Below, in pieces: positions 1 to 64,000 of a stretch of DNA of 64,000 nucleotides. Source of the DNA: Chrysomallon squamiferum. Taxonomy: Eukaryota > Animalia > Mollusca. Where the stretch lies: contig CM022679.1 in NCBI GenBank assembly GCA_012295275.1, forward strand, positions 31,496,001-31,560,000, given 5' to 3'. Under the pieces are notes generated by a model. It was not told the origin of the DNA. It did no database searches and worked only from the letters and a program-made list of their open reading frames with translations. Position 1 is the stretch's first letter; every line of letters starts with the position of its first letter. A program made the translations under genes and the position numbers.

Positions 1-132
1 AATGCTTTTTTAATATTTTTATTTCTGTCATTATTCAACATAAACATCCATAATAATGTTAAAAATAATTATGTTTGCAAACAAAACGGCAAAATTTGGT
101 ACATTGTATGTGTTGTGTACACTTTAAATTAC

Positions 133-5435: not shown

Positions 5436-20908
<15,473 letters not shown>

Positions 20909-31324: not shown

Positions 31325-31410
<86 letters not shown>

Positions 31411-31470
31411 TTGATTATAGATGGTAGTTTTTTGGTAATTGCCAGGTTTCTAGCAGTTTGCAAAGCCAAG

Positions 31471-31507
<37 letters not shown>

Positions 31508-32509: not shown

Positions 32510-32545
<36 letters not shown>

Positions 32546-34587
32546 CTAATTTTATATTTGCACTGCAAAAACCTGCTCACATCCCTGAGTGCTGGTTTTG
32601 AATTTTACCATGCTCTGCAGAAACATCCAGTTATTTAATATAACAAAGAGACAGAAATATTTATTCAAATATTATGAAACTCATATTAATTTGATTCTTA
32701 CTATTATAATCCGCTTCAAAATTATATTGAAAATTCATTATTTCTAGAAAAATCATATTAATGGAAGTGTATCTATCAGCAAAAATAAATTTATTTTAAT
32801 AGCTTATTATTATTTGATTTGATTTGAAATGGATTTGATTCAGATATAATTCTATTACCTAACTCACAGAAGATACACATAAAAATTATTTTCACAAAAA
32901 TAACATTTATTCAGATGTTATTACTGTTAATAACAATGAAATCATACTAATTCAGTGTGTTGTTATCAAGAATAGAAAAGCTACTGAAATGGGAACTTCA
33001 AAACATTTAATAATAATAAAATAAAATAAAAAATAAAATAAATAAAAATATCAATAATAAAAAAACAATATAAATATGTATTTTATATGTCTGTGTATGT
33101 TATATAATGTTATCAGTGGCTTGAGCAAAATACTATAAATTAAAACAATATTATCTCCCTGCACAAACTTATTAATACAAATACAGTAACAATCAGCATA
33201 TATTCACTTGTATATTATTACTAAGAGCAGATTAATCCACATACACTATAACCAGAATCAAACTACTGTTGATTAATATTATTATTATTATTATTATTAT
33301 TACCAATTAAAATACCAAAAATAAATATTGTGGTTGTCAATTGAAAATTAACTCCATGAAATATAATTACAAATTTTTGCATTTTAATTATCAGCACAAA
33401 AATCTGATTAATTCTAAAAATAGTGCAACTGAGTGCAATTAATATTTTAGCCAACCGTTTAAAAGTCACTTTAACAGTAAATGAAATGCAAAATGTTGTT
33501 CTTGGACAAACTTTTAATTGTTATTTATATCCCGATCCTGTCAAGTGAAAAAAAGTGTGACCTACTGTGGAACACTATCTAATTGTTTTTTAATTTTTGA
33601 CTGTTACCATCATTATAACTGACATTTAATATTATGACAAAAGATATAATAAAATGTTTTGAATCCCACTGTTGTAGTTTACATACCACTAGCTTGTGTA
33701 TGAAGGATTGTTTTATCAGCACCTTGTCAATCAACATTTTTTTTCAACATTTATTTTGAAATTGTTTGAAGAATGTTTTTTTTATTTTTATTTTTTTATT
33801 TCTCATTTATTATAATTTTGTTTTAATCTTAATTTAATTTTATTTAATTTAACATTTATTCTCTTTTTATTTATTTCATTTTATTTATTATTATTTTGTT
33901 GTTGTTTTGTTTTGTTTAAGGTCGAGCCAGTTTTTTGTGGATGATAGCGGAGGGTACACATCAATAGATACACTGGATTCTTCAGATCCAGTCAAAATGT
34001 CTCAGAATGAAACTTTCACAGGGACCAAGTCAACAGCAGCAGCAACAACAACAACAACAACAACAACAACAAGAGCATCAGAAACGATGGAGGGGGAATA
34101 TGCTGAGATTGGTGAAGCTTACTTGTCTCAAGAACGCAGCAGTACAAAAACAAAAACAAAAACAAACAACAATGAAAACGAAACGAAAAATGCTTCATTT
34201 TCAAAGCCGTCAAACAGTGGCTTGGTTTCAGAATATGCACCAGCTGACTTGTTAACAGAAGAAAACTATAGTGACGTGGTGTCAGCAGAAGAGCCCAAAC
34301 CTCACAGCCCTGCAGTGACAGATTTGTATGCCTCGGTGAACAAAGAACAGAAAAGAAAGGACAGTGCCGAAGACTCGACTGACGAAGTCCTCAGCCTCTT
34401 CGACAAGTTAGAGTTCACGAAACCAGCACCACTGATTCCTCTGCAGGACGAGGACTACAAACCTCTCCGCGATCTGAAACAGTTCCTTGCCAACAATGAA
34501 GACTTGTGTAGACGGTCTTACAACATTGTGCCCCAGGGAGCTGACCCAGTGCTTCAGCTGAAAGAGATGTTAAAAGAAATAGGATAA
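30002..34587 (+). CDS. PH-domain adaptor-like protein with a tyrosine-motif-rich disordered tail (335 aa)
   Basis: Exons 30002-30064, 30279-30347, 30638-30760, 31166-31251, 33921-34587 join in frame. PH pattern: GYLEK, KYWCML, FEIV, HIFTALSPEECSTWIQKL. Tail motifs YTSI, YAEI, YSDV, YASVNK, YKPL, YNIV. Confidence 0.85.
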
Positions 34588-36844
34588 GAAGTGGAGCTGT
34601 TTGTCAACAGGCTGCAGTAATATCCAACTTACAACCTGTTTTTTGATTCATTTTTCTTTTGTTATTTGGTTACAGATCTACATCTGTGTGTGTGCATATG
34701 CATGTTTGTGGTTGTGTGTGTGTTTCTGTGTATGTGTGTGTGGGTGGGTGGGTGGGTGGGTAAGTGCAGGTCTATTATAACTTCTGGCAATAAATATTTT
34801 TTCACACACAATTTTGAAGGCAAGCTGACGCACACGCATATATATATATATAACTCATATCATACATATTACATAGTTTATATATTTGCATGGATACCTG
34901 ACTCACATTAAGAACAATCATTAGCGTTATGAACAGAGAAGACCTTACAGCCTGTGATTTAAAATATTAGTGTTTTATGAGGAATGATTTTCTTTCAGTT
35001 ATTTCATGCTTTCTGTTATGCTGATGATTCACTGCAGCAAATGTGACATTAGTATCATATTATTCTTGTTAGTAAAGAAATGTTTCCAGCCTGTAACATG
35101 TAATAGAAAAAATACCAGAGAACATGTCATAGACAGAAAATCATTCTTCTTCGTGTTTGTGTAAAACGTTCAGGTTTACACTTTGTGTAAACATTTGTTG
35201 ATAATGTTTTATGTAAAATGTGTTCCAGTTTCAAAAATGTTAGAGATGTTACTTTATATAAAAAAGTTTCCGATTCAAACTGTGTTAAGGATGTTATGTA
35301 CTGTCTTTTATGTAAAATGTGTTCAGTCATAGTTTATGTAAAAAACTATTCTAATTCAAGCTACATTACACAGAATGTGTTCTCAGTCATAGTTCATGTA
35401 AAATAAATTCTGACTCATACATTTGTTTTTATTTATAGATAAAATAGAAATTTGTTTAATCATTCAGTGTGGACTATTGATTGCAATCAGCCAATCAATC
35501 AAAAGTGTAGTGCAGACAGATTGCACATGATTCAGAAATTCAGTGCAGGCCATCAAAGTAAGGTAGACACCACAAATATATTCTTTTGTATTGTGCAACA
35601 ATTGTTCATGCAGTTATGCAAGGTGCACCAACTTATATACTATATATATAAAGTATACTCAGTATATATACCAAAATAAATATTTTTAGAATTTTTTAAT
35701 ACAGGTAAATTATTTTGACCTGGTTATTTTAAAAGTAGCTCGCAATGTGAAAAAGGGTTGGACCCCTCTGCTATATAGTTTGTTACTTTTTATTTTTAAA
35801 TTGCATTGTTATCAAAATTGTGTTTTATAAAGCTTACTTAGATTCTTATCTTATTGGAGAGGTGACTAAGGCTCTGTATATTTTTATGTGTGTGTGTGTG
35901 TGTGTGTGTGTGTTAGGATAATAGAAAATATTTATTCATAAACTATATAGTACATTTACATAATTATTTGGTACTGGAATAAAAACCTACAAATTTTTTT
36001 TTTTTTAAAGCAGTATATTTTATTCAAACTATAAATATATACTTTGACTGGCATGACAGAAATGCCCCCCCCCACACACACATACACATACCCCCACACA
36101 CACACTGTTATAAATGTTACCTTCAAAGTATTACCATAAATATGGGGTCCAGATAATTGACATATCCTACTAATAAGATACTAACAGATAAGGAAACTAT
36201 TTGTTAAAATGCTAATTTTGTTCAGGTATTAGCCATTTAACCTCAGATTTATTTATTTATTTATTTATTTGGAGTTTTTTATTTTTCTCATAAATATAAG
36301 TGTTCTAAAAGTGTTTAATTTCATTTTGTGTGTTTGTGTGTGTGTGTGTTTGTGTGTTTCTATGTGTATTAATGTGTAAATGTACACATATTCAGTATAT
36401 CTCATGAATCTAAATGTCTGCAGTTATTATTTATTAGTGTTTTGTTCATCATTTATGAACAAGTAAATTTTGTAATATATTGATACCACAAGTAAATGGC
36501 CATGAGTGAATGCTTGTATACAGACTACATTCACTTAGACTCCATGAAAAATGTTGTTTATCTTCTTTTTAATTGGAAGAATTGGATAAGGCCAGATGGG
36601 TAATCTTTTTATTTTAGTATTGTTTTTAAAAACTGTTTGTCTATTTGTGAATAGAATCATGTACTGAATGGTAACTGATCATTATCACTGGTATCTCTTA
36701 CTGTCATGAACAGTCACAGGTATAAGGAGGTGCAGTTTTATTAGTTTTGAAAGCAACATGTTGGTAATAAAAATACAAAAAATATGATAAAGTATGATAA
36801 ACAACATATTTCTTTTAGCAGTCCTTAGTAAACTGTCAAAAAGA

Positions 36845-38252: not shown

Positions 38253-39962
38253 AATTTCCCTTAGACTTAATGTATTAATCTGTAGTGTCATTACTAATGT
38301 TTTTAAAAAAAGAAAATATGTATTTATTTATTTTTAGTATGAGCAGTAAAGGGGAGTAACTCCTGTTTTAAGGAATGTCGAAAATATATTTCTAAAGAGA
38401 ATATTAAATTAACGGTCGAAGGGAAATAATTCATGACGCATAAAGAAAACAAGAGTTATTTCCCGTAGACTGTTAAATATTAATCTGTAGTGTCATTTCC
38501 AATGGTATAATTATTATTTTTTTTTTATAATGGATGTATCTATTTATTTTCAGTGTGAGCAGTAAATTTACGATCTAAGGGGAGTAACTCCTGTTTTAAG
38601 GAAAGTCGAAAATGTAATTGTTTAGAGAATATTAAATTAACGGTCAAGGGGAAATAATTCTTGATGCCTAATCAAAACAAGAGTTACTTCCCCTAGACTG
38701 TTAATTTGCCATTTCCATTTTTTTTTTTTTTTTTTTTTTTAAATTATAGATTGATTTATTTTCAGTATGAGCAGGAAATTAATGATTTGAGGGGAGTGAC
38801 TCCTGTTTTAAGGACAGTCGAAAATATATTTCTAAAGACTAAAGAGAATATAAAATTAACGGTCTAAGGGAAATAATTCTTGAAGGATAAAAACGAATTA
38901 TTTTCCGTAGAGTGTTAATGTATTAATGTGTAGTGTCATTTGCAAGGCTTTTTTTTGAAAAAAAGAAATTTGATATATTTATTTTCAGTATCAGCAGTAA
39001 ATTTACGATCTAAGGGGAGTAACTCCTGTTTTAAGGAAAGTTGAAAATATATTTGTAAAGAGAATGTTAAATTAACGGTCAAGGGGAAATAATTCCTGAT
39101 GCCTAAACAAAACAAGAGTTATTTCCCTTAGACTGTTAGTATATTAATCTATAGTGTCATTTCAATTTTTATTTATTATTATTATTTGTTTTTATATATA
39201 TATTTTTTTAAATTATGGATTTATTTATTTCCAGTATTAGCAGTAAATTTACGGTCTAAGGGAGTAACTCCTGTTTTAAGTAAGGTCAAAAATTAATTTC
39301 TAAAGACAATATTAAATTAACGGTCAATGGGAAATAATTCTTGATGGCTAAACAAAACAAGAGTTATTTCCCTTAGACTGTTAGTATGTTAATCTATAGT
39401 GTCATTTCCATTTTTATTTATTATTATTATTTGTTTTTATATATATATATTTTTTTAAATTATGGATTTATTTATTTCCGGTATTAGCAGTAAATTTGCG
39501 GTCTAAGGGAGTAACTCCTGTTTTAAGTAAGGTCAAAAATTAATTTCTAAAGACAATATTAAATTAACGGTCAATGGGAAATAATTCTTGATGGCTAAAC
39601 AAAACAAGAGTTATTTCCCTTAGACTGTTAGTATGTTAATCTATAGTGTCATTTCCATTTTTATTTATTATTATTATTTGTTTTTATATATATATATTTT
39701 TTTAAATTATGGATTTATTTATTTCCAGTATTAGCAGTAAATTTACGGTCTAAGGGAGTAACTCCTGTTTTAAGTAAGGTCAAAAATTAATTTCTAAAGA
39801 CAATATTAAATTAACGGTCAATGGGAAATAATTCTTGATGGCTAAAAAAAACAAGAGTTATTTCCCTTGGACTGTAAATGTACTAATCTATAGTGTCATT
39901 TCCATTTTTTTTTAATTATTATTATTTTTTTTATACAAAATTATGCACTTATTTATTTTCAG
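38253..39962. repeat. Tandem satellite, about 7 units of 212-247 bp, each with an internal inverted repeat
   Basis: The GCAGTAAA anchor (one variant) recurs at 38343, 38559, 38771, 38994, 39240, 39487 and 39734. Units carry AAGGGGAGTAACTC, AAGGGAAATAATTCTTG and CAAGAGTTATTTCCCTT. Confidence 0.95.
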
Positions 39963-40899
39963 TATTTTAGTATATAATAGCTTATAAAAACTACATTATT
40001 GGTCTGATAAATAAATTATAAAACATAACAAATTTGATTTTAGACATGCAATCGCTGAAGTAATTATCAATGACGAGTTAGACTTATATACATAATAGCT
40101 TTTACACCTTCATTTCAAGTGACTGAAAGAGAATGAGATGAGAATACAATCTGTTTTAAAAATCAGCCAAAATGATTTTCAATCATTACATTGCTGTCTT
40201 GGTTATAAACAAATACTAATAATCATAATTAACAAACAAATAAATAAATAAATAAATAAATAACAAAAAACATATGAAAATTTATTGAGATATAAATAAG
40301 TATACACTTGAATTATATATGCAAAAGAGAAAATTCTAATTAAAGAAAAAAAAAATGAATGAAATAAAAATATAAAAAAGTAAAAATAAAATAAAGATAA
40401 CGAACTTTTACTCCAATACAAATTACTTTTAACTTAATATAAATCAAAAATATAATGCAATGTACCCTAGCTAGATAAATAAATATTAAACATGTGCTAA
40501 CAAACATGCTATTTTAACAACATAAATTTATAATCTAACTTTTTGAACTATGATATTTTCTCAGTTCATAAATTTTACTGAGTTTAATGTACCAAAGGTG
40601 AACAGTCCCCCAGTAGCTCATTTTCAAATATGAGTTTCCTGTATTAGCCACACTGAGGTGGGGGTATCATCACTCACCAGGTGACTCCTTGTTGCTGCAT
40701 TTAAGGTACATTAAATAGTAATAATTTTTAAATGGTGAGGAATGAATGATCCTAACAAATAATTATAAAATAAACCTAAGTATTTTCATTACACCATGCA
40801 AGACAAAATGGATACCAATATTTCTTTTAAATTAAGACTAAACAAAATTTTAGTTTTATATTTATTTAGTTTCTAATTATTAAACAATAAGGAATATCA

Positions 40900-44084: not shown

Positions 44085-44266
44085 GTTACACACACGACTG
44101 TTATTCATCAGTAATTCAAACGGTAAACACGAATTTAGTAAAGTGGACATTTTCATAAAGAGGGCACTCAGATACAAACACTGCAAAAAACTGCAATATG
44201 TCGTGGATATGGAAGGATTATCATGAAAATTATTAACACTGAAATAAAAATATCACTTTAATAAAC

Positions 44267-44314
<48 letters not shown>

Positions 44315-45500
44315 TTTTCAAAACGACTTTCCTGCTTTATATCAATTATTATTAGTAGTATCAAAGGTTTAATCAAAGTAGGATATATTAATATACTTTC
44401 TATATACTTTTCTGGTCAGTGTTTATGAACTAGATATAGTGTAAATGTCAGTAATTTATATGTTACAGTTTGTTTAACAATATTTAAACTGTTGTAATAA
44501 TTTACATGTCAACGTTTCAGATTTTTCTTAACGTCACTGTAGTCTTGTTGAAAGTACAATAATTAAAAAACAAAACAAAACAAAAACTATATCATAATAA
44601 TTTTAAGAAAACAATACAACAGAATGATTAAATGTTATATGAAATCTGGATCATATTAAAACTGTTATTTTGATTATATATCAACATTTGTATGTAGCTT
44701 TACTTTCAATTATGTGAATAGGGGTTCACCATTTCCAGTTTATATATGTTTTAGTTGTTTACTTTTTGTACACCAGTGTCTGTCATCAAAATTATAACTA
44801 AATTAATCTTTGACTATAATAATATCTAGAGACTGAATAAATATTCATATTTCACATACTATTATTAAAATGATAAAAAAAACGAACACCAAAAACCCCA
44901 TCTAAAAAAAAACCCCACGTACAAAACCAACAAAAAACAAACAACAAAACAAAGAAAAAGAAAAAAGAAAAACAACCGAATATTCATAGTCAATACATTT
45001 ATAGTATTATTACATTTTAATATCTCATAAACATTCTTATATTACATTTCACATTCATTATCTAGATACACAGCTGACTGAAATTCCAAAAAATTAGTTG
45101 CAGTCTATTTATGAAGTAATAATTTATTTTAACAATTATTTCCTAATTACTTTGAAAAATCAGAATAGGTAGATTTTATATTAACTATACTAGAACTTCA
45201 GGAGAAAAGGGTAAGCTGAAAAGAAAAAAAAAAAACAACCATGAACTACCTAAAATTTAACAGTTCAGAAAATCTTTTGCGTACCTATAAATATAAAATA
45301 AAATAAACAAAATGAAAAGTAAAATGAATAAAATAAAATAAAATAAAATATCATAAAATAAATAAATAACAATTAAGTCAGATAAAACTTCAGGAATATG
45401 AAGGAAATACAATAATTATGATATTTTGCATATGTTTAAAGTATCACAGTGTGGTAGATTTTTGTTAACAGTAATGAAGAACGGTAAAAATGTATAGATG

Positions 45501-45535
<35 letters not shown>

Positions 45536-46178
45536 TTGTATAAATATATATATGTGTACATATATAAACATCTATTTATGTATGTATCTAGCAATAACTA
45601 TAAGAATGATAATAATAAGGAAAATTAAAATTAATACAGTTGCAAAGAAATCATGTATTTTTTCTACAGAACTGTAGCTCATAAAAACTATTATTTACCC
45701 TAACACCGAACTGAATATTTTTTTCTCCCTAATTCATCTGTTGTAATCAGTAAAGTATAATTTTAAAAATTTCCTTCCTCCTTTATGTCAGTTATTACAA
45801 AAATTTCAAAGGGTTTAATCAAATCAGAATATAGTCATTTTCTATACAAGTTTCGTCTGATTAAGTTCAACATATGGCTTAAATGTCAATAGTTTATACG
45901 TTCAAGCTATTTCACTACTATTATAACAGTCAAAGTTATACAAAGTAGAATGTATACTTCAGGGACAGTTTATCTAGGAAAAAGACAGAGTCAGTAGATT
46001 ATTTGTTTCTGTTTATCTACGAATATTTTAAAAATTAATTTGCATGTTAACGTTTCAGATTTTGCTTGACTTTTCAGAGGTCATATTAAAACTCTTTTAC
46101 AATAAGAATTTATATAAAAAAAAAGAAAACCAAAGAAAAAAACTTACAGCAATTGCATTGCATGTTACTAAAACAATT

Positions 46179-47513: not shown

Positions 47514-48171
47514 ATGAAAGTATTTCAGCTCTCAGTTGTAATGTTTCTTCTGTTGGTGCTTAATTCATCTCCGATATTAGCTACTGTTACGTATTCAGAA
47601 TGTGTGGAAAAATGCAGGTAAGTCTACAATCGGCTTAACAGGTTCAGTAATTAGAAGTAATTTGTATCAAAAGCGAATCTTCGATCACGTTAAAAAAATG
47701 TGAAAATATTGTAACACCATTTCTCTTGCCTATTACATATATTATATATTCAGTTTATCACTTCTACACACTTTAATAGTAGTATGAAAGCTAGTAAAAC
47801 AGATAATATTGAAGATTCTGTAAATATAGATGTTTTATAAGGTATATAATATAAAAGAAAAATCTCTATCACGTTCGTATTTTATTTTTTATTTTATTAG
47901 TGGTTTCTTGCCAGATCCTTCGTAAGTATCATTTTATTATTATTCTATTATTCTATTAGTCTTTAAACTGCGTGTAAAACCCAACACACTACTACTATTA
48001 TACTAGTAAAACCCAACACACTACTACTATTATACTAGTAATACTAATACCACTACTACAACCTTCAGTATTATTAATATTACTACACTGCCAATACAGT
48101 ATATTATACTACCACAGCATTACTACCATACTTCTATTATACTAACAAATATTGCTGCTATTGCTATTGCT

Positions 48172-48212
<41 letters not shown>

Positions 48213-49564
48213 GCTAACATTATTATTATCATTAGTAGTAGTAGTCCCATCACTATTAAATATAATTCTTTCAGATTAACTGTACTCTATAGTATCACTA
48301 CATTACTTCCACACTACTACCATTTCTACCATAGCTACTACTTTTACACTAGTACTATAATATCCTGTATTAGTGCTATTGCTATTACTGTTATAATGCT
48401 GTTACTATTAATATTATCACTTCTAATGGTGGTTCTTTCAGATTAACTGTAAGGCAAAGTGATATATGTATACATTATTAAAATACTTTATACTGATTGT
48501 TGATGTTCTGTATATCATCACTGGCCACATTTTTCAGGAAATGCCCAAAATGCTGTGCTGATGTTGAAGAGATTGGAAGTAAGATGAATTTTATTTTCTT
48601 AAAGAATTTTACACAGGCACAGGCACAGACAGACACGTACATACGCTGAGGCTAATGTACTCTCACATACACACACACACGTATATATGTTTTTTACAGA
48701 CATAGACATGGACATACAGAAATGAACAAACACGACTGTTATTCATTGTAAATGATTTTAGTAAAGTGAACAGTTTACACGAAGTGGTCATTCAGACACA
48801 TACATACGTACATATATATATATATATATATGAATCTGCAGATCCTGTACATACGTATGTGATGTTGCATATATTTTAGAGAATATAATAATAAAAATAT
48901 CTCCTCGTTCAAGCTTTTGCTGGTATTCTGAAAGTTTCGATTATGTATGTATCATTTGCATGAAATTTCACCAATTAAGAATCATAAAATCACCAATTCA
49001 AAAGAACAGCAGTAACATTAACAGTAATTATAAACATGATAATAACAATAACAGTATAATAATAATAATAAGATCCCAGCTATAACAACAAAAACAATAA
49101 CAATAATTATAATTTTATTTTAAAATAAGCCCAGTTATATCATTTTAATAAGAATCTCCATTTTTTTTCAAACATCTCTGCCTTCGAAACCAAATTAGAC
49201 CAATAGCTGATCACATTGTTTAGCTATAGTCATAACATCCCAAATATTTAGAATAAAGTATATGGTAGGACAAATATTACTATTATCATTAAATTATTAT
49301 ACCACTACAGCGATTTGAAAAGATGTGTGTGTGTGTGTGTGTGATAAATGCATTATAGAGTAACTGGGCTTTCTCATAGTAAATATTTTCAATTGTTAAA
49401 GAACGTTATAATGTCGCGAATATTTATTCTTATTTAATGAAGATTTATTAGAAAGGTTACTTAATTTAGTAAAAAACAAAAGTAATAAATAAAATGTGTA
49501 TATGTGTGTGTGTGCGTGCGTGTGTTTCATTTAATAACAATAACAACAACAACAACAACAATAA

Positions 49565-49595
<31 letters not shown>

Positions 49596-49920
49596 AAGAA
49601 GAAGAAGAAGATGATGAAGAAGAAGACAAAGACGAAGATACAGAAGAAAAGAAGTATAAACATTTTTTAATTCAGTACAATCGTTAACATATTTTGTTTC
49701 CTGCAAAATATGCAATATTAGTGAATCATATTATAAAAATTATTAACACTGAAAGAAATACATCACTTTAATAAACCTCATTTTAAATACTTTTCTGGTC
49801 AGTGTTTATGAAGAGAAATAGTGAGTAAATATGAGTAATTTATATCTTACAGTTTAACAATATTATAACAATTGTAATCATTTATATGTCAACGTTTCAG
49901 ATTTTTCTTTACGTCACTGA
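47514..49920 (+). CDS. Small secreted Cys-rich peptide precursor (61 aa predicted)
   Basis: Exons 47514-47617, 47901-47921 (21 nt), 48538-48578, 49901-49920, all GT-AG. Translation MKVFQLSVVMFLLLVLNSSPILA-TVTYSECVEKCSGFLPDPSKCPKCCADVEEIGNFSLRH*. The hydrophobic signal peptide is clear; the last-exon assignment is inferred from phase. Confidence 0.75.
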
Positions 49921-49969
49921 AGTCTTACTGACAATATTTATGATAATTTTAGCAAAACTACATCACAAT

Positions 49970-50289
49970 AAGCTTGCATATAAGCTGAAAAAATGGTGGA
50001 CATAAGCTCAAAGATGTTTCAGCATATAAACTACCGAATGAGCTGCATTCTTCAAGTTAGTCGCATCTTCAATGGAACATTTAAAGCATTTGACAAACAC
50101 ATTAATCTTGCAAACTAAAAAGAACGTAAGTCTGGTGAACGAAAAGCGGAGATAATTCTGGGTTTAGTTTTGTTATGGGGAGGAAGGTATTTCACGTGTT
50201 CCTCTTCGTGGTGTCGGTCCCGGAATAGGCCGGGTTTGCTGATAGAGAGATGTGTACTGCTGCAGCACGAGGAGGTGGTTCAGGTCTCC
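49970..50289 (+). mobile_element. Probable 5'-truncated retroelement 3' end with an (ACAT)n tail
   Basis: Interrupts the homology with 44540-44620. The GC-rich end has stems CCTCTTCGTG/CACGAGGAGG and CCCGG/CCGGG, followed by (CATA)n. Confidence 0.45.
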
Positions 50290-51585
50290 ATACATACATA
50301 CATATGACATAGATAAGACATACATATATGCTTACACCTATACAAACATATATACACACAGACACACATACATATATACACATGTACATTCAAATGTATA
50401 TATGTGTTTATATATATATACAGACAGATGTACATACATAGATACATATACATACATACAAACATATATACATACACTTTGTCAAGAAATGCACACTCAT
50501 ACACACACATCTATATACATATCTATACATGAATACATACATGCTTACCCTAATACAAACATATATATACACAGACACACATACATATACAGACATGTGC
50601 ATACATATGTGTATATCTATGCACACACATGTACTACATACATATATACATATACATACATACCTATATACACTTTTATGTTCTTTTTTTCTAATAAGCT
50701 ATAGGTAGTAAGATAGATAACTGTTCATGCATTTAAAATTCAATTATTTTACGTAATCTTCTTAGTAGCTGTTAAAATAGAGGCAGACAGACAGAGTGTA
50801 TGACAGATGTACAGATTAAAATATGTCAGTTTTCTTTTTAAGCTGTAACAATTTTAATATGTTAGACTGATTTATACTTTTCTGTCGTAGTACAGAATAA
50901 TATAATATTCAAATCTTTGATACAAAATATTTTATTACATTCGTACATGATTTTAAAAAGCTCGTGTAATCGATATCATAGATATTCTTCCAAGAAGGCT
51001 GTTGAATAACACAACTGTTTTTGATATTTTCACATGATATATATACATTTTATCATTAAAGTATCTCGACATTAAAGAAATTTAAAGGACAGAAAGACCG
51101 TGTGACAGATATAGAGATTAAAATATGTCAGATAACTTTCTAAGCTGTCATAATTTTAACATTTACTGCCAGATTTGTAATTTTTTGTCGTTGTAAAGAT
51201 TAATATAATATTCAAATGTCTGATACAAAATATGTTATTACATTAGTACATGATTATTTTAAAAGGCTCGTGCATTCGATATAGTACACTTTCTTCCTGC
51301 TAGTTTGTTGAATAACACTACTGTTTTCGGTAAGATATTTTCACATTTTATATATATTTTTTAATGATCCCGACACTTCTAATAAATTTCATGAAACAGT
51401 ATTCACAATCATTTAATAAGACAATGTGTTGGATTTGATAAATAATCATCCTATAGTAGATACTTCATATATTATAATAGTCATTATATTAATAAGCGTA
51501 AAAAGAAAACAAATGTATATTTTAATCACTAAAAAATATATTTATTTCTCTAAGAATCTGCATGTTTCAGTTGACCTGGTTTGCA

Positions 51586-54003
51586 ATGTCTGTACTGAAA
51601 CTGAAAATGTTTCTCGTCTTACTAATTTTGGGATCAGTGGTGGCCGTGTCAGCTGTTGAATGGGAACCTTACAAACCACTGTAAGATTTATTTTAGCTGT
51701 CTTCCTATGTGAATCCAAATGTAAATTATTTTATTTTGTAAGATTTATTTCTGTTCTTCTTACTCAATAAATATCAGACAAGGTTAGAAATTTCAAGACG
51801 AAGGATTCCAGATTCAGACTATTTAAATGTGTCTTTGTATATCCTATGCTCGCTGTTATTTACAAGTATATGTTATAGAGAAGGAACTAATTCCATTCAT
51901 ATTTTGTGTAAAAGGCTTTATTATATTATTATATATATTTCTTTTTTCCACATGTTTCAGTCCACCGTGAGTATAATTTATCATTACATGACATTCACAC
52001 AATATTTCGGTCCTGTATAAAGAAACATACTGTATCAAGTAAACTAATAGCATACAAACTAAAATTAGGAAAAACAATCTGTGAAATAGTGTTTCCTTCT
52101 AATCCAATAATAAAAAAGAATTAGAATTATTAAGAGTTGAGAATCAGTTTATGTTTCTCTTTCTTTTTCTGTCTTTCTTTGTTTTGTTTTCTTCCACAAC
52201 CGTAACAACTTAGACCCAAGTGGAAATGGAAATGGAAAAAAATTAACGTGCTAATCAGAGCAAGCTGTTGTGAAGCACGTATTAGACCCAAGTTGTTATT
52301 TTACTAAATTATACTCATATCAGTCTTCACTTTTCAAAAACAGATTGATGTTTTATAAGTGAGTATCAATTTATCTCCACACAGAAGTGTGTGTGTGAGA
52401 GAGAGTGGCAATCAGCAGCAAAAACAACAAAATAATGATGATGATAATACTAAATTGTACTAATATCAGTGTTCACTTTTACAGATACAAAAGGAGTATT
52501 GTTAGGTGAGTACAGCCAAACCACCTACACCACAACTGCAACCGCCAACACAAAAAACAACATAATCAACAACAACAACAATAAGAATAATAATAATAAT
52601 AATAATTGATGATTCCGATGAATATTATATGTGTTGATGAATAGTATGTGGACAGCGATGAATGGTAATAGTAAGAAATGTGATAATTATTTCATTATTA
52701 TGTCTGCTGAAAAATTGATTTTTATTTTTATTTATGTGTTCCCTTCAGAGAATGGTATGTGTCAATTATCAGTAGGGAACTTAACTGTATTTACAACAGT
52801 ACCAAACAAATTCTTACATCAAAATTGAAGTAACAAATACACATCTGACCTGTTGTAATTTTATGCACTTTAATATAAATATTTTTAAATGAATTTTGAG
52901 AAGACTAACCATGAGATGGATCCAAATTTACTTTTAAGTTCCGATACTTATTATTTGATTGATAATTGTTGTTTCTCTTCAAAATATTAAACAAACAAAC
53001 AGCCTGGCAAGTCTCATTCTCTTAAATTGTAAGACAATTTAATTCAGCAGAAATATTATATATTGGGTCTTAGTTTTGTAAAACCAGAAACCATTAAAAA
53101 CAAGTCTCTTTGATATATTCGTAAGTTAATAGAGAGCACCCCACCTGGAAAAAGAACTGAATGGGGATTTCATGCAGTATGAACATAAGGGCATTAAAAC
53201 AGACGACAGTGATAAAAAATAAATTGTTAAAAAGGACCTCATTATATATGACAATGCTGATAATGCTGAATTCATTTTCTAACAAATGGACACTCAATCA
53301 GTTTATGCTTTTTAAACATTCACACTTCTTTTGCTGTAAATGTATAATGTTTTCAATCCCTGTCTAAGTGATGTCCATTATCCTTACTATTGTACTAATT
53401 CAGCACTTTTTTCTTTACTTTTATTTTACTATTTCTATCAGGCTTACATAAAATAATAATAGTAAAATAAAACGAAAAACTTAGTTTCCATGATTATTTA
53501 TCTTTATAAAACATGTACAGAGCTGGCTTGTAAGTCTCATTCTCTGAAACTGTAAGACAAATTACATCAGCAGAACTATTATACTGGGTTTTAGTTTTCG
53601 TAATACGCATAGAAACTATTAAATATAACTGTCACTGAATTGCACCGGTTCGGAATAAAATTATATTTTTTAATGTTGACAGGAGGCAGTTCCACCATTT
53701 AGAAATACAAGAATTCAGTTTCAGAAGACCGTACAAATGTCCAAGCTTATGATTTAAAAATCTCAAAAAATAAGTGAAACATTTCACATTACTGTCTAGC
53801 ACTTTGTAAATTCATACCACAAAGGTGAAGATATAATCACGTTTGTGAACAAACCCACGACAAAATCATACTCACATTAAATTTCCTAATTTATCCTTCA
53901 GACAGTATATATATATTTTTTTCCTTTAACAAAAGACAATAATGTATATTACAGTTTATCTAATGCGGACTATAACAAAATACATTATAAGAAAAAAAAA
54001 ATG

Positions 54004-54035
<32 letters not shown>

Positions 54036-54145
54036 AATAATAATAATTTAAAAAAATGATATTTAAATTTCTAGAAGATATACTGAATTTAAATTCAAAT
54101 CGTTTTTCTCCAAATCTTAAGAATATCATGTGTTCAGTTAAATAA

Positions 54146-54204
<59 letters not shown>

Positions 54205-54833
54205 CAACAACAATAATAATAATGATAATACTCTTACACAGCAGTTCAGATAAACTTAGTATTTTAAAGACGATGTCAAAATGAAGAGAAAAGATCGGAA
54301 CAGTTCGTTATCAATAGGTGTATAGAGGTCATCTCAAGTAAAATAAAACAAACATGTCTCCGAAATAAGAAAAAATGTAATTTGTATTTTCAGGAGAGGC
54401 GCACTACCTGTTATCTCTGATTTGCTTCACATCAGAAGTTGTAAGTGAAGTTATTTTTGTCTAAACTAATACAAGAAAGAAAATGTTTATTTTTGTGGAT
54501 ACTTATGTACGTAACTAAGCATATATCACTCAGTGAATGTATGTATGTATGTATGTATGTATGATTGTATGCATGCATATATGTATGTAGATGTATGCAT
54601 AAACGTGTGTATCTATGTATGTAGGTATGTCATCCATGTGTGTATGTGCATCTACGTATGGATAGATAGATAGGGACTGAAGAATGAATGGATATTGATA
54701 AAAATAATGTCTCATTTAAATTTCTAAATTCTTTAATTATTGCCGGCAGAGAGCTGATATTATGTATTTATTTACTGTTTTTCTCGTTTCAGTGTCAGGA
54801 AAAGAGGGAGAAAGCAAGATGAGTTCACGATAA
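51586..54833 (+). CDS. Micro-exon secreted peptide precursor, copy 1 (71-76 aa)
   Basis: Exons 51586-51680, 51961-51966 (6 nt), [52344-52358, 15 nt], 52485-52505 (21 nt), 52749-52754 (6 nt), 54394-54440, 54793-54833; non-coding exon donor at 51330. Translation MSVLKLKMFLVLLILGSVVAVSA-VEWEPYKPLPP[LMFYK]YKRSIVREWRGALPVISDLLHIRSLSGKEGESKMSSR*. Confidence 0.8.
52210..52293 (-). mobile_element. 60-bp retroposon 3' fragment with a 12-bp target-site duplication
   Basis: TTAGACCCAAGT at 52210-52221 and 52282-52293 flanks an insert that ends in (TTTCCA)n on the minus strand. The insert is absent at the paralogous site near 58815. Confidence 0.8.
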
Positions 54834-54939
54834 TAAAATATTGTGTGATGAAAACACTTAAGTGTCTATTATGAATCTGTTTAACCTATTTCTATCATTC
54901 TATTTAGATAAAATGTCATAAAATCATTAACGATTTAAC

Positions 54940-54944
<5 letters not shown>

Positions 54945-55009
<65 letters not shown>
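54945..55009. repeat. (CT)n microsatellite; longer paralog at 61571-61687
   Basis: Perfect dinucleotide run. Confidence 0.95.
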
Positions 55010-55013
<4 letters not shown>

Positions 55014-58000
55014 CATTTTCTGTAAGCATTATCAGTATTTTATTTTCCTAAATGTAAAATAATATATATTTAAAAGACAAAATTTTCACTGAATAACATT
55101 GACTCATCTTATTTATAGTGGACTTAAATGTTCTTCTGTTGTTTTTTCGAAACTGAATGTCCTCCAAATCAAGAAAAGTGATAACAATTAATTTTATACT
55201 TTCTTTTTCTTTCCCGAATCAAACTGGTCTGCACTTTGTAATTACAAACACAATGTCTATACATTGGAATGCAATGAAGCATCATATTTGTTAAACAGAT
55301 TGCTAGTGGCGCATTAATAGTGTCTAAAACTAAAACATATCTATATACAATATAAAAATAGTATAGCAGTTAGACTCAATATATCGGTAAATGATATTTC
55401 TCACTTTTTAAAATATAATTTGTAAAATGTTTAACGAGATTATTCTTATTTCCGAGAAAGTAACAATGCCGTTGACGAGATTTTAACGTATGACACCCAT
55501 ATATGCATGTGCATGTGCATGTATGTACGTATGTATGTCTGTATGTCTGTATGTATTTGTGAGATTAACTGCGTAAGGAGCCTATAGAAATAACTGTCTA
55601 ACAAAAAAATGTTTTGGATTAGTTGGATCATATTTATAATGACACGAATTACATACAACATACCTTGTTCCTTCTTGTTAATTACAATATTCGAGTAAAT
55701 GTCACTTTTGTAAATCAGTTTTTACATAGCACTGACTCCTTAATGAACAACATGCATGTATATAATCTATGCACGTTTATTTCTTTCTACATGTGAGTCT
55801 TTAATTGAGTGTATTCACCTGTCCCTTTAATCAATTATATAGCTAACTGTATATCTATGCATCTATGCATCTGTCTATCTGTCTATCTCTCTATATGTCT
55901 GTCTATCCATCTATCTATCTATCTATCTGTCTATCTGCATTTCTATCTAAATATATAATATATGCATAAATGGGTTGAATATGTCTCATAATTAATCTTG
56001 TAACGATTCATAAAACCTTTTTTATTTTAAATTTCTGAATAATAATCATCAAAAATAACAACTCACTAAAACTGATGTTCAATGACGTAAAAATACTGGT
56101 TTCAGTAACACATATAAAGTGATTAGTAAATATGACTCATGTTGAAAGATGTCGGTGGACGAAAACATTCAAATATGGTGCGCGTCAGTTTAACGACAGT
56201 ACAGGAGGCAGGGTAATGACCACCTACTCTCTAAAAACTAACTGAGTGAGAGTCAGACATGGAGATTACAATAAACCAAATATTCTATGATAAAAAAAAT
56301 AAATGTTTATTCTGAATATTCATTTGGTTTTTATGCTCTAGACTGAGAAAATATACGATTTGTTCTTTTTTGTGTGTTTTTTTTAAATTTATTTTTGTAA
56401 TATATACCATTACCACTATTAAAACATTAGATAAGACTAAAAACGCCTCTAATATTTAAAACATGAATATTAATACTGTCACAATTTTAATAACAGTAAA
56501 AATATCTTCTTTATTATGGCACCATAAAAATATGAAATTACCAAACATGACTAATTATTAAATAAGTGAATAAACTTTAATGACTTATGTCCTCAAAAAT
56601 AAAATAAAATAAAATTAACAAGTTCTCTCCATGTTGCAGGTCAGTTGAGGGTCACAACAAATCACAGTCATCATCAGGGCTCATAATGGTCATAAACCAT
56701 ATCAGCATTTTCCCTACACCTGTCAGATTTATAGTTCTGTACATTTCTATTTCTGACATTTACTGAATAATCCCCTTCCCTTGACATGCTGAATTTTCTT
56801 TCTTTATATCATTTCTACCTGTTTTTATTATTATTATTATTATTATTATTAATTTAGAGATCAATGTCAAAAAGTGCACACACATATCTATATACATATC
56901 TATACATACATACATATGACATAGATATGAGAAACATATATGATTACACCTATACAAACATATATACACACAGACACACATGCATATATACACATGTACA
57001 TTCAAATATATATATGTGTTTATATATATATACAGACAGATGTACATACATAGATACATATACATACATACAAACATATATACATACACTTTGTCAAGAA
57101 ATGCACACTCATACACACACATCTATATACATATCTATACATAAATACATACATGCTTACACCAATACAAACATATATATACACAGACACACATACATAT
57201 ACAAACATGTGCATACATATATGTATATCTATGCACACACATGTACATACATAGATACATATACATACATACATACATATATACACTTTTATGTTCTTTT
57301 TTTCTAATAAGCTATAGGTAGTAAGATAGATAACTGTTCATGCATTTACAGTTCAATTATTTTACGTAATCTTCTTAGTAGCTGTTAAAATAGAGGCAGA
57401 CAGACAGAGTGTATGACAGATGTACAGATTAAAATATGTCAGTTTTCTTTTTAAGCTGTAACAATTTTAATATTTTTGACTGATTTATACTTTTCTGTCG
57501 TAGTACAGAATAATATAATATTCAAATCTTTGATACAAAATATTTTACTACATTCGTACATGATTTTAGAAAGCTCGTGTTATCGATATCATAGATATTC
57601 TTCCAGGAAGGTTGTTGAATAACACAACTGTTTTTGATATTTTCACATGATATATATACATTTTATCATTAAAGTATCCCGACATTAAAGAAATTTAAAG
57701 GACAGAAAGACCGTGTGACAGATATAGAGATTAAAATATGTCAGATAACTTTCTAAGCTGTCAGAATTTTAACATTTACTGCCAGATTTGTAATTTTTTG
57801 TCGTTGTAAAGACTAATATAATATTCAAATGTCTGATACAAAATATGTTATTACATTAGTACATGATTATTTTAAAAGGCTCGTGCATTCGATATAGTAC
57901 ACTTTCTTCCTGCTAGTTTGTTCAATAACACTACTGTTTTCGGTAAGATGTTTTCACATTTTATATATATTTTTAATGATCCCGACACTGCTAATAAATT

Positions 58001-58196
58001 TCATGAAACAGTATTTACAATCATTTAATAAGAGAATGTGTTGGATTTGATAAATAATCATCCTATAGTAGATATTTCATATATTATAATAGTCATTATA
58101 TTAATCAGCGTAAAAAGAAAAAAATGTATATTTTAATCACTAAAAAATAAATTTATTTCGCTAAAAATCTGCATGTTTCAGTTGACCTGGTTTGCA

Positions 58197-60539
58197 ATGA
58201 CTGTACTGAAACTGAAAATGTTTCTCGTCTTGCTAATTTTGGGATCAGTGGTGGCCGTGTCAGCTGTGGAATGGGAACCTTACAAACCACCGTAAGATTC
58301 ATTTTAGCTGTCTTCTTATGTGAATCCAAACATAAATTACTTTATTTTGTAAGATTTATTTCTGTTCTTCTTACTTAATAAATATCAGACGAGGTTGGAA
58401 AATTGAAGACGAAGGATTCCAGATTCAGACTATTTAAATGTATCTTTGTATATCCTATACTCGCTGTTATTTACAAGTAAATGTTATAGAGAAAGAACTA
58501 ATTCCATTCATATTTTGTGTAAAACGCTTTATTATATTATTATATGTATTTCTTTTTTGCACATTTTTCAGAACACCGTCAGTGTAATATATCATTACAT
58601 GACATTCACACAATATTTCTGTCCTGTATAAAGAAACATACTGTATCAAGTAAACTAATAGCATACAAATTAAAATTAGGAAAAACAATCTGTGAAATAG
58701 TGTTTCCTTCTAATCCAATAATAAAAAAGAATTAGAATTATTAAGAGTTGAGAATCAGTTTATGTTTCTCCTTCTTTTTCTGTCTTTCTTTGTTTTCTTC
58801 CACAACTACAGCAACTTCGACCCACGTTGTTATTTTACTAAATAGTACTCATATCAGTGTTCACTTTTCAGAAACAGAAGTAGGGCTTATCTGTGTGTAT
58901 CAATTTATCTCCACACAGAAGTGTGTGTGTGAGAGAGAGTGGCAAACAGCAGCAAAAACAACAAAGATAATGATGATGATAATACTAAATTGTACTAATA
59001 TCAGTGTTCACTTTTACAGATTGAAAAAGAGTATTCGTAGGTGAGTACAGCCAAACCACCTACACCACAACTGCAACCGCCAACACAAAAAACAACATAA
59101 TCAACAACAAGAACAACACTAATAATAATAATAATAAAAATAATTGATGATTCCGATGAATATTATATGTGTTGATGAATAGTATGTGGACAGCGATGAA
59201 TGGTAATAGTAAGAAATGTGATAATTATTTCATTATTATGTCTGCTGAAAAATTGATTTTTATTTTTATTTATGTGTTCCCTTGAGAGAATGGTATGTGT
59301 CAATTATCAGTAGGGATCTTAACTGTATTTACAACAGTACCAAACAAATTCTTACATCAAAATTGAAGTAACAAATACACATCTGACCTGTTGTAATTTT
59401 ATGCACTTTAATATAAATATTTTTAAATGAATTTTGAGAAGACTAACCATGAGATGGATCCAAATTTATTTTTAAGTTCCGATACTTATTATTTGATTGA
59501 TAATTGTTGTTTCTCTTCAAAATATTAAACAAACAAACAGACTGGCAAGTCTCATTCTCTTAAATTGTAAGACAATTCAATTCAGAAGAAATATTATATA
59601 TTGGGTCTTAGTTTTGGAAAACGTATCAGAAACCATTAAAAACAAGTCTCTTTGATATATTCGTAAGTTAATAGAGAGCACCCCACCTGGAAAAAGAACT
59701 GAATGGGGATTTCATGCAGTATGAACATAATGGCATTAAAACAGACGACAGTGATAAAAAATAAATTGTTAAAAAGGACCTCATATGACAATGCTGATAA
59801 TGCTGAATTCATTTTCTAACAAATGGACACTCAATCAGTTTATGCTTTTTAAACATTCACACGTCTTTTGCTGTAAATGTATAATGTTTTCAATCCCTGT
59901 CTAAGTGAAGTCCATTATCCTTACTATTGTACTAATTCAGCACTTTTTTCCTTACTTTTATTTTACTATTTCTATCAGGCTTTACATAAAATAATAATAG
60001 TAAAATAAAACGAAAAACGTAGTTTCCATGATTATTTATATTTATAAAACAGGTACAGAGCTGGCTTGTAAGTCTCATTCTCTGAAACTGTAAGACAAAT
60101 TACATCAGCAGAAATATTATACTGGGTTTTAGTTTTCGCAATACGCATAGAAACTATTAAATATAACTGTCACTGAATTGCACCGGTTCGGAATAAAAAC
60201 ATATTTTTTAATGTTGACAGGAGGCAATTTCACCATTTAGAAATACAAGAATTCAGTTTCAGAAGACCGTACAAATGTCCAAGCTTATGATTTAAAAATC
60301 TCAAAAAATAAGTGAAACATTTCACATTACTGTCTAGCACTTTGTAAATTCATACCACAAAGGTGAAGATATAATCACGTTTGTGAACAAACCCACGACA
60401 AAATCATACTCACATTAAATTTCCTAATTTATCCTTCAGACAGTATATATATTTTTTTTACTTTAACAAAAGACAATAATGTATATTACAGTTTAACTAA
60501 TGCGGACTATAAGAAAATACATTATAAGAAAAAAAAATG

Positions 60540-60585
<46 letters not shown>

Positions 60586-61457
60586 TAACAAAAATAATAA
60601 TAATTTAAAAAAATGATATTTAAATTTCTAGAAGATATACTGAATTTAAATTCAAAGCGTTTTTCTCCAAATCTTAAGAATATCATGTGTACAGTTAAAT
60701 AATAATAATAATAATAATAATAAAAATAATAATAATAGTAATAATAATAATAATAATAATAACAACAATAACAACAACAATAATAATAATAATAATAATA
60801 AAAATAATAATAATAGTAATAATAATAATAATAATAACAACAACAATAACAACAACAATAATAATAATGATAATACTCTTACACAGCAGTTCAGATAAAC
60901 TTTGTATTTTAAAGACGATGTCAAAATGAAGAGAAAAGATCGGAACAGTTCGTTATCAATAGGTGTATAGAGGTGATCTGAAGTAAAATAAAACAAAAAT
61001 GTCTCCGAAATAAGAAAAAATGTAATTTGTATTTTCAGGAGAGGCGACCGACCTGTTATCTCTGATTTGCTTCACATCAGAAGTTGTAAGTGTAGTTATT
61101 TTTGTCTAAACTAATACAAGAAAGAAAATGTATATTTTTGTGGATACTTATGTACGTAACTAAGCATATATCACTCAGTGAATGTATGTATGTATGTATG
61201 TATGTATGTATGTATGTATGATTGTATGTATGTATGTAGATGTATGCATAAACGTGTGTATCTATGTATGTAGGTATGTCATACATGTGTGTATGTGCAT
61301 CTGAAGAATGAATGGATATTGATAAAAATAATGTCTGATTTAAATTTCTAATTTCTTTAATTATTGGCGGCAGAGAGCTGATATTATGTATTTATTTACT
61401 GTTTTTCTCGTTTCAGTGTCAGGAAAACAGCGAGAAAGCAAGATGAGCTCACGATAA
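58197..61457 (+). CDS. Micro-exon secreted peptide precursor, copy 2 (71-78 aa)
   Basis: Exons 58197-58291, 58572-58577, [58872-58892], 59020-59040, 59287-59292, 61039-61085, 61417-61457; non-coding exon donor at 57943. Translation MTVLKLKMFLVLLILGSVVAVSA-VEWEPYKPPTP[NRSRAYL]LKKSIRREWRGDRPVISDLLHIRSLSGKQRESKMSSR*. Some micro-exon splice sites are weaker (GTCAGT, GTGTGT, GAG acceptor). Confidence 0.75.
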
Positions 61458-61564
61458 TAAAATATTGTGTGATGAAAACACTTAAGTGTCTATTATGAAT
61501 CTGTTTAACCTATTTCTATCATTCTATTTAGATAAAATGTCATAAAATCATTAACGATTTAACT

Positions 61565-61689
<125 letters not shown>

Positions 61690-63699
61690 GCATTTTCTGT
61701 AAGCATTATCAGTATTTTATTTTCCTAAATGTAAAATAATATATATTTAAAAGACCAAATTTTCACTGAATAACATTGACTCATCTTATTTATAGTGGAC
61801 TTAATTGTTCTTCTGTTCTTTTTTCGAAATTGAATGTCCTCCAAATCAAGAAAAGTGATAACAATTAATTCTATACTTCCTTTTTCTTTCCCGAATCAAA
61901 CTGGTCTGCACTTTGTAATTAAAAACACAATGTCTATACATTGGAATGCAATGAAGCATCACATTTGTTAAACAGATTGCTAGTGGCGCATTAATGCTGT
62001 CTGAAACTAAAACATATCTATACACAATATAAAAATAGTATAGCAGTTAGACTCAATATATCGGTAAATGATATTTCTCACTTTTTAAAATATAATTTTG
62101 TAAAATGTTTAACGAGATTATACTTATTTCCGAGAAAGTAACAATGCCGTTGACGAGATTTTAACGTATATATGTGCATGTATGTATGTATGTATGTATG
62201 TATTTATGTATTTGTGAGATTAACTACGTACTGAGCCTATAGAAAAAACAACTGTCTAACAAAAAAAATGTTTTTTACAAGAAACCAAATATTATATAAA
62301 CCAAAGATAAAAGAAATACAGATTTATTCTGAATATTCATTTGATTTTTATGCTCTATACTGAGAAAATATATGATTTGTTCTTTTTTGTGTTTTATTTT
62401 TTATTTATTTTTGTAATATATACCATTACCACTATTAAAACATTTGATAAGACTAAAAACGCTTCTAATATTTGAAACATGAATATTAATACTGTCACAA
62501 TTTTAATAACAGTAAAAATGTCTTCGTTATTATGGCACCATAAAAATATGAAATTACCAAACATGACTAATTATTAAATAAGTGAATAAACTTTAATGAC
62601 TTATGTCCTCAAAAATAAAATAAAGTAAAATTAACAATTTCTCTACATGTTGCAGGTCAGTTGAGGCTCACAACAAATCACAGTCATCATCAGGGCTCAT
62701 AATGGTCATAAACCATATCAGCATTTTCCCTACACCTGTCAGATTTATAGTTCTGTACATTTCTATTTCTGACATTTACTGAATAATCCCCTTCCCTTGA
62801 CATGCTGAATTTTCTTTCTTTATATCATTTCTACCTGTTTTTATTATTATTATTATTATTAATTTAGAGATCAATGTCAAGAAGTGCACACACATATCTA
62901 TATACATATCTATACATACATACATATGACATAGATATATGAGAAACATATATGATTACACCTATACAAACATATATACACACAGACACACATGCATATA
63001 TACACATGTACATTCAAATATATATATGTGTTTATATATATATACAGACAGATGTACATACATAGATACATATACATACATACAAACATATATACATACA
63101 CTTTGTCAAGAAATGCACACTCATACACACACATCTATATACATATCTATACATAAATACATACATGCTTACACCAATACAAACATATATATATACACAC
63201 ATACATATACAAACATGTGCATACATATATGTATATCTATGCACACACATGTACATACATATATACATATACATACATACATACATATATACACTTTTAT
63301 GTTCTTTTTTTCTAATAAGCTATAGGTAGTAAGATAGATAACTGTTCATGCATTTACAGTTCAATTATTTTACGTAATCTTCTTAGTAGCTGTTAAAATA
63401 GAGGCAGACAGACAGAGTTTGTATGACAGATGTACAGATTAAAATATGTCAGTTTTCTTTTTAAGCTGTAACAATTTTAATATTTTTGACTGATTTATAC
63501 TTTTCTGTCGTAGTACAGAATAATATAATATTCAAATCTTTGATACAAAATATTTTATTACATTCGTACATGATTTTAAAAAGCTCGTGTTATCGATATC
63601 ATAGATATTCTTCCAGGAAGGTTGTTGAATAACACAACTGTTTTTGATATTTTCGCATAATATATATACATTTTATCATTAAAGTATCCCGACATTAAA

Positions 63700-63960
63700 G
63701 AAATTTAAAGGACCGAAAGACCGTGTGACAGATATAGAGATTAAAATATGTCAGTTATCTTTCTCAGCTGTCATAATTTGAACATTTACTGCCAGATTTG
63801 TAATTTTTTGTCGTTGTAAAGACTAATATAATATTCAAATGTCTGATACAAAATATGTTATTACATTAGTACATGATTATTTTAAAAGGCTCGTGCATTC
63901 GATATAGTACACTTTCTTCCTGCTAGTTTGTTGAATAACACTACTGTTTTTCGGTAAGAT
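63700..63960 (+). promoter_or_regulatory. Promoter and non-coding exon 1 of a third micro-exon gene copy (coding part beyond the window)
   Basis: Paralog of 51095-51335 with the TTTAAAAGG TATA-like box and an intact donor CG|GTAAGA at 63954. Confidence 0.6.
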
Positions 63961-64000
63961 GTTTTCAATTTTATATATATTTTTTTCCATAAATTTCATG

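Follow-up and report, generated by a model that had tools for sequence, protein, structure and literature searches.

The 64,000-nt stretch analysed here (contig CM022679.1, hereafter the window) is AT-rich animal DNA and carries a tandemly repeated gene whose predicted product is a secreted peptide some 70-78 residues long. Self-BLAST and alignment delimit two units on the forward strand, unit 1 at 50287-56898 and unit 2 at 56899-62908, and self-BLAST places the start of a third at 62909-64000 (+), where the window ends before the first coding exon. Global alignment of units 1 and 2 over these spans gives 189 mismatches in 5822 aligned columns. In about 675 common bases, pairwise comparison gives 17 differences for unit 3 against unit 1, 11 for unit 3 against unit 2 and 14 for the remaining pair, and three mutually distinct units require at least two loci. 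We rejected mis-assembled haplotypes, an explanation that the preliminary description had itself raised together with read errors, in view of these three distinct units, of a tail-to-head junction that is present twice in self-BLAST of the window, and of five versions of one exon (G, below) in a single run, which is not known to represent one animal. The differences between units are not read errors either, since four runs carry most of the variants, together with further paralogs whose length changes keep the frame. The repeats are thus real tandem paralogs.

The exons of this gene were predicted from splice motifs and reading frame. In unit 1, exon A (51571-51680, +; CAG acceptor, GTAAGA donor) offers start codons at 51586 or 51607, a predicted, hydrophobic signal region to 51654 and eight mature codons, and ends in phase 2; translation and hydropathy support it, the N-terminal stretch reaching 3.1 on the Kyte-Doolittle scale. 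It is followed on the same strand by micro-exon B (51961-51966, 6 nt, CAG/GTGAGT), cassette micro-exon C (52338-52358, 21 nt, placed by splice motifs), micro-exon D (52485-52505, 21 nt, CAG/GTGAGT), micro-exon E (52749-52754, 6 nt, CAG/GTATGT), exon G (54394-54440, 47 nt) and the last coding exon H (54793-54833), which runs to a TAA stop at 54831-54833 overlapped by AATAAA. In unit 2 the corresponding exons, also on the forward strand, are A at 58182-58291, B at 58572-58577 (donor GTCAGT), C at 58872-58892 (21 nt, or 15 nt from 58878; donor GTGTGT), D at 59020-59040, E at 59287-59292 (acceptor GAG, a form found in three of the four runs), G at 61039-61085 and H, to the stop, at 61417-61457. 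The acceptor for the 21-nt form of C in unit 1 reads CAA, but a CAG at 52341-52343 would yield an open, in-frame 15-nt exon (52344-52358, +), and the cassette need not be dead there. All the predicted micro-exons (6, 15 or 21, 21 and 6 nt) are symmetric and in phase 2, and the three or four of them make up 15-23% of the coding sequence. Several independent signs suggest that such tiny exons are coding, as the preliminary description had supposed. In the phase set by exon A, each of the six copies of C, D and G has an open frame, the other two phases being closed in 6/6 and 2/6; all 16 exon-skip combinations are free of stops in both units; C and D derive from an internal duplication; and indels keep the frame.

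Between units 1 and 2, the coding sequence of the mature peptide differs at 15 of 144 positions without cassette C and at 23 of 165 with it, as compared with 83 of 2903 (2.9%) in the introns. This excess is significant by Fisher's test (p = 3.9e-5 without C, 3.4e-9 with C), by block permutation (4.6e-4 and 5e-6) and in a Poisson model adjusted for base composition (1.5e-4 and 1.5e-8), and it persists if each group of neighbouring differences is counted as one event (p = 0.0025-0.024 when C is excluded, 8e-5 to 0.019 when it is included). Set against its own flanking introns, each exon contributes to a sum of 23 differences observed for 5.7 expected. Neither base composition nor simple repeats account for the excess, and we also rejected GC-biased gene conversion as its cause: GC-neutral changes are in excess too (8/165 vs 48/5468, p = 2e-4), and weak-to-strong changes do not significantly outnumber strong-to-weak ones (11 vs 4). 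Exon by exon, differences number 2/6 in B, 8/21 in C, 5/21 in D, 0/6 in E, 3/47 in G, 3/38 in the coding part of H and 2/26 in the mature part of A, which reproduces the counts of the preliminary description, including the cluster of three in G (GCA-CTA to GAC-CGA). The micro-exons (15/54) differ more than the larger exon parts (8/111), and divergence in the tiny predicted exons, of 6-21 bases, is about tenfold that of the intervening introns; exon E, with no differences, is without evolutionary support of its own. Most of the excess falls in the two 21-nt exons, C and D, all eight differences of C lying within its last 15 nt, and it remains without both of them (10/123, p = 0.004) and also when H is left out (20/127). 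The signal region shows 1/48 differences, synonymous, when counted from the ATG at 51607, in line with the single change reported before, and 2/69, one of them a Ser-to-Thr replacement, from the in-frame ATG at 51586, which is at or below the intron rate. The variable stretch formed by the end of A, exons B, C and D and the first seven codons of G differs at 19 of 77 positions, and the next 26-nt block, the rest of G, at 0 of 26.

An internal control, not remarked on before, lies in the gene itself: a young exon duplication with 7% divergence in the flanks and 48-62% in the exons. Exons C and D are copies of one 55-nt module, which around D in unit 1 spans 52454-52508 (+) and comprises acceptor flank, exon and the start of the donor. 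Their flanks (33 nt on the acceptor side plus 7 nt on the donor side) differ at 3 of 40 positions in each unit, whereas the 21-nt exons themselves differ at 10 of 21 in unit 1 and 13 of 21 in unit 2 (p = 6e-4 and 1e-5 against the flanks). A contig of run X7 skips the D module (one of four runs, the short side of the alignment being only 23 letters), and diverged contigs in runs X1 and X3 stop at the same base, a weak to moderate sign that some paralogs may be without D.

Variation in other samples was taken from DNA contigs of four runs from three studies, compared out of 11 runs listed, nine of which hold part of the stretch; the comparison covers 40 of 169 and 40 of 56 variant rows, from filtered records. 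The five D differences of unit 2 occur together in all four runs, and the B change at 51962 and the H of unit 1 are each present in all four. The C version of unit 2 was found in X1 and X3, that of unit 1 exactly in X3, and the G of unit 1 exactly in X5. Depth arithmetic yields five distinct starts of G in X3, one of them with the three changes of unit 2, and G versions 3 nt longer occur in X1, X3 and X7. In three of the four runs there is a third C version in which a 1-nt loss is offset by a 1-nt gain; in X3, where about 170 bases of this version align, seven of its 14 substitutions fall within the exon of 21 nt (p = 7e-4). For exon G, among the 40 of 56 rows considered, nine of the first 21 positions are variable and none of the last 26, with 9/137 in the flanks (p = 5e-5; p = 0.015 if all 16 remaining rows lay in those flanks). 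The differences between units 1 and 2 are therefore real, yet they travel as a mosaic and are not fixed marks of either copy.

The preliminary description had attributed this pattern to positive selection of the kind known for conotoxins and abalone lysin. Its comparison of nonsynonymous divergence (dN) with introns holds, dN being 3.8 times the intron divergence without C and 5.7 times with C (p = 2e-4 and 6e-9), and its codon count was recovered as well: nine amino-acid changes in 48 mature residues against two purely synonymous codons, or 13 changes in 55 residues with the cassette. That ratio of nine to two, however, equals the expectation from random changes (P = 0.53) and was set aside as evidence of selection. 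Exons C and D together hold 13 nonsynonymous and no synonymous differences (p = 0.03, for a choice made post hoc). We consider it probable that these are tandem paralogs of a predicted secreted-peptide gene whose predicted micro-exons outrun the introns through selection for varied middle segments, in a peptide that most likely acts on microbes. Our best reading is a lineage-specific family of secreted peptides, with micro-exons like those of the schistosome micro-exon genes (MEGs), under diversifying selection and probably acting on microbes. Under it, the peptide would consist of a signal region, eight conserved residues, a variable stretch, a segment encoded by the conserved 26-nt block and a tail. 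Diversity would arise by duplication of units, duplication and loss of exon modules and replacement under diversifying selection, and further by reshuffling between units and skipping of the symmetric phase-2 exons, which weakened splice sites in one unit or the other could favour.

Several observations weigh against this reading. The ratio of nonsynonymous to synonymous divergence (dN/dS) is 0.90 without C and 1.55 with C, not significantly above one (Fisher p = 0.74 and 0.40). The synonymous sites are themselves 10-11% divergent (pS; 3.5 of about 31-35 sites), which exceeds the divergence of introns (p about 0.015-0.02), and homogenisation of introns or local hypermutation may therefore contribute. 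The introns, said before to be only a few percent divergent, are so overall, but unevenly (6.4, 5.4, 1.6, 1.7, 2.0 and 3.4%; heterogeneity p = 6e-5), and such a mosaic makes them a poor clock; against the most divergent intron alone (18/280), the excess is significant with C (p = 0.007) and not without it (p = 0.11). Outside the exons, 18 of 5308 windows of 21 columns, in three places, hold at least five differences, one of them, within 52199-52293, holding six, and after merging the whole signal comes down to 8-15 events. Among the rows considered from the four runs, the D version of unit 1 and the H version of unit 2 were not seen, although a gap in contig coverage proves nothing by itself. 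Weak splice sites occur in unit 2 at the donors of B and C and at the acceptor of E, and in unit 1 at the acceptor of C, and some of the exons concerned may be skipped or decaying. Amphipathicity of the exon G peptide is modest, with a moment of at most 0.55, and an anionic propeptide is absent. Searches found no homologue for the reading frame of exon A at 23-76 or 77-2000 residues, a weak query of 43 codons, 11 of them intronic or untranslated and the others mostly signal, and gave neither a usable Atlas match nor a Pfam match for the exon A peptide, the whole spliced peptide not having been searched. As a separate observation, the stretch 52140-52293 holds a long pyrimidine tract and, after it, at the site of an insertion in unit 1, six differences in 21 columns, the densest such cluster outside the exons; the cluster could be a decayed or unrecognised micro-exon, and no clean frame-keeping splice pair was found there.

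An alternative to accelerated exons is that they are simply old: gene conversion or unequal crossing-over would homogenise the introns while selection keeps old exon variants, and the ratio of dN to intron divergence would overstate the speed. The uneven introns and raised pS described above fit this idea, as do other samples that join the D of unit 2 with the H of unit 1, and differences tend to be denser within 10 nt of exons (8/120) than beyond 200 nt (26/1233), a trend only (p = 0.08 for 25 nt). Conversion tracts would nevertheless have to end within bases of exon D, since the introns on both sides of it differ at only 6 of 369 positions; and both in the comparison of C with D and in the contig of a diverged paralog, the exons are several times more divergent than the directly adjoining flanks. 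Between units 1 and 2, C and D have no synonymous difference. We regard this alternative as unlikely. The exons could also be local hotspots of mutation, through error-prone repair or multi-nucleotide events and with little selection, as has been proposed for conotoxins. Transversions are indeed enriched in the exons (19/23 vs 91/164 outside, p = 0.013), as are adjacent differences (8/23 vs 10/164), and pS is about equal to its nonsynonymous counterpart (pN) without C; this enrichment fits both conotoxin-style hypermutation and selection for replacements, which favours transversions too. The mature exons of conotoxins likewise have raised Dn and Ds, for which low-fidelity polymerases were proposed (passages of PMC3862624). 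On the other side, indels keep the frame, exon A and the last 26 nt of G are conserved, and no copy contains a stop, a weak argument given that neutral simulation leaves this a chance of 0.2-0.3. We know of no mechanism that targets 21-nt windows in the germline, and hotspots as the main cause seem very improbable to us.

Still less is to be expected of the proposal that the micro-exon model is wrong or the gene decaying, with the clusters due to chance, alignment noise or assembly error. It can appeal to a model that depends on splice motifs, some of them weak in one unit, to the non-exonic cluster of six and to the two unit-specific exon versions not seen among the rows considered from the four runs. 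But neutral decay predicts the intron rate and not 5-10 times that, three distinct units lie in the window with more versions in single runs, and the phase test and the frame-keeping indels argue for translation. A different kind of alternative accepts the same evolution and changes the role, the peptide being a reproductive or chemical signal (a venom much less probably) and not an antimicrobial or a means of symbiont control. Secreted reproductive proteins of gastropods change rapidly, and processing could take place at mature residue 13, where both units have a dibasic site, and at residue 38, where there is a Gly-Lys pair. There is, however, no homology to lean on and no cysteine in the mature part, and many copies, with several versions within samples, fit immune-type families; against the venom variant, PMC5333402 reports that Gigantopelta chessoia showed no discrete salivary glands. 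We hold this alternative as a whole to be doubtful, if a serious competitor.

With respect to function, the mature part has no cysteine in either unit, five prolines, five to seven arginines and six acidic residues that are spread out and form no anionic tail, and its net charge is +3 in one unit and +6 in the other. Changes between units were said to add arginine, and three do; one removes it (cassette excluded). From this composition, from the many versions per sample and from a symbiont-bearing host, we guess at a Cys-free, Pro/Arg-bearing cationic effector at the host-microbe surface, a call that falls a little short of even. A role as a reproductive or chemical signal, taken separately, is rather unlikely, and venom is unlikely. 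The host itself was approached through an exon of CNOT3 (CCR4-NOT subunit 3) at 19314-19583, whose best match among 120 of 363 matches is Gigantopelta aegis at 93% identity, followed by Haliotis at 72%; the gene, judged by eye around this one searched exon, spans about 7780-20910 (+). G. aegis is a peltospirid vent snail and has bacterial endosymbionts, as described in PMC7895826, and the host is likely a close relative, a vent snail of peltospirid type. With the exon closest to a symbiont-bearing vent snail, a venom or lysin role is poorly supported.

Abalone sperm lysin is itself a gastropod secreted cationic protein under positive selection, a larger folded protein that diverges between species, and we found no Pfam or sequence match here (first exon searched). 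As to conotoxins, the snail gene shares with them a conserved signal exon, a higher divergence of mature exons and trinucleotide indels (cf. passages of PMC3862624), but it lacks a propeptide exon and the cysteine framework that most conotoxin superfamilies have, has its mature part split into predicted micro-exons and comes from a host that, by its CNOT3 exon, is neither a cone snail nor a conoidean; the exon A peptide gave no conotoxin superfamily signal or Pfam match. The analogy drawn with both systems thus survives as one of evolutionary pattern and not of homology. Closer in layout are the schistosome MEGs, which, as described in PMC4350168 and PMC10526429, have a signal peptide, small symmetric exons whose lengths are multiples of three and permit in-frame skipping, tandem clusters and a mature part faster than the signal, with mature dN/dS reaching only about 1.1. 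The snail gene resembles them in its predicted signal peptide, symmetric multiple-of-three micro-exons, tandem units and fast mature part. MEGs have, however, 10-20 short exons forming most of the coding region and are said there to appear restricted to platyhelminths, so that a gastropod gene with three or four micro-exons and the coding share given above falls outside their definition on exon number, coding share and phylum; no sequence link was tested or found. A search of the open-access literature, supplements excluded, for micro-exon secreted peptides in molluscs returned nothing relevant, the matches listed being on flatworms, by title, a review, or general papers on gene conversion. 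The myticalins of Mytilus, as described in PMC5577615, are linear cationic antimicrobial peptides, Cys-free and Pro/Arg-bearing, from a multigene family variable between individuals and restricted to Mytiloida; a single exon encodes their signal and mature peptide, after which come a dibasic site and an anionic extension. The likeness lies in the mollusc origin, in the Cys-free, Pro/Arg-bearing composition, in a variable multigene family, in a hypervariable middle between conserved signal and C-terminal parts and in a last intron of phase 1; the snail gene differs in a mature part spread over six or seven predicted exons, a tail that is not anionic and a net charge of only +3 to +6.

Within the repeated units we also noted an insertion of about 72 nt in unit 1 only (52210-52282, +), with a short direct repeat on both sides and high copy number in the runs, seen as a depth peak; a 650-nt segment of unit 1 (55616-56265) missing from unit 2 and without a further copy in the window; and, upstream of exon A, a direct repeat of some 300 nt (80% alike) within each unit, at 50786-51363 in unit 1 and with counterparts in the other two. 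An untranslated first exon may end at the GTAAGA donor at 51330. Just upstream of the units lies a second predicted secreted-peptide gene of the same layout (47514-48578, +), with a signal exon ending in phase 2 (47514-47619, +), a 21-nt phase-2 micro-exon (47901-47921, +) and a 41-nt exon leading from phase 2 to phase 1 (48538-48578, +). It is Cys-rich (five cysteines in its three recognised exons), gave Atlas leads to thionin-like proteins only, at 0.80 or below, and a sub-threshold Pfam match of the signal only; it may be an older relative of the same micro-exon family. Homologous patches of 69-90% identity at 44088-44546, 45756-46070, 48726-48804 and 49729-49926 suggest older, decayed duplications of this upstream region. 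Elsewhere in the window there are a tandem array at 38254-39966, with units of roughly 200-250 nt whose older copies are 75-82% alike, and, by eye, two more multi-exon protein-coding genes, at about 30280-34590 (+) and 130-3100 (-), one of which has a long last exon at about 33921-34587.

Exons that outrun introns are already familiar from peptides with toxin, immune or reproductive roles. The present gene is unusual in that its fast part consists of predicted exons of only 6-21 nt and that it comes from a gastropod, whereas this architecture has been described as apparently restricted to parasitic flatworms. In its strongest form, which we put forward as a speculation more likely wrong than right by a wide measure, a vent snail would have independently evolved a MEG-like generator of diversity, a tandem family of secreted peptides whose variable middle consists of symmetric micro-exons produced by duplication of a 55-nt module, exons that diverged within a few percent of intron divergence, and combinatorial skipping, used to recognise or control bacterial symbionts. 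The locus also makes the old question raised by conotoxins, selection or hypermutation, testable. The family is probably absent from the gene annotation, and since routine annotation misses such genes, symbiont-bearing vent snails may have an entire class of rapidly evolving effectors that has gone unrecorded.

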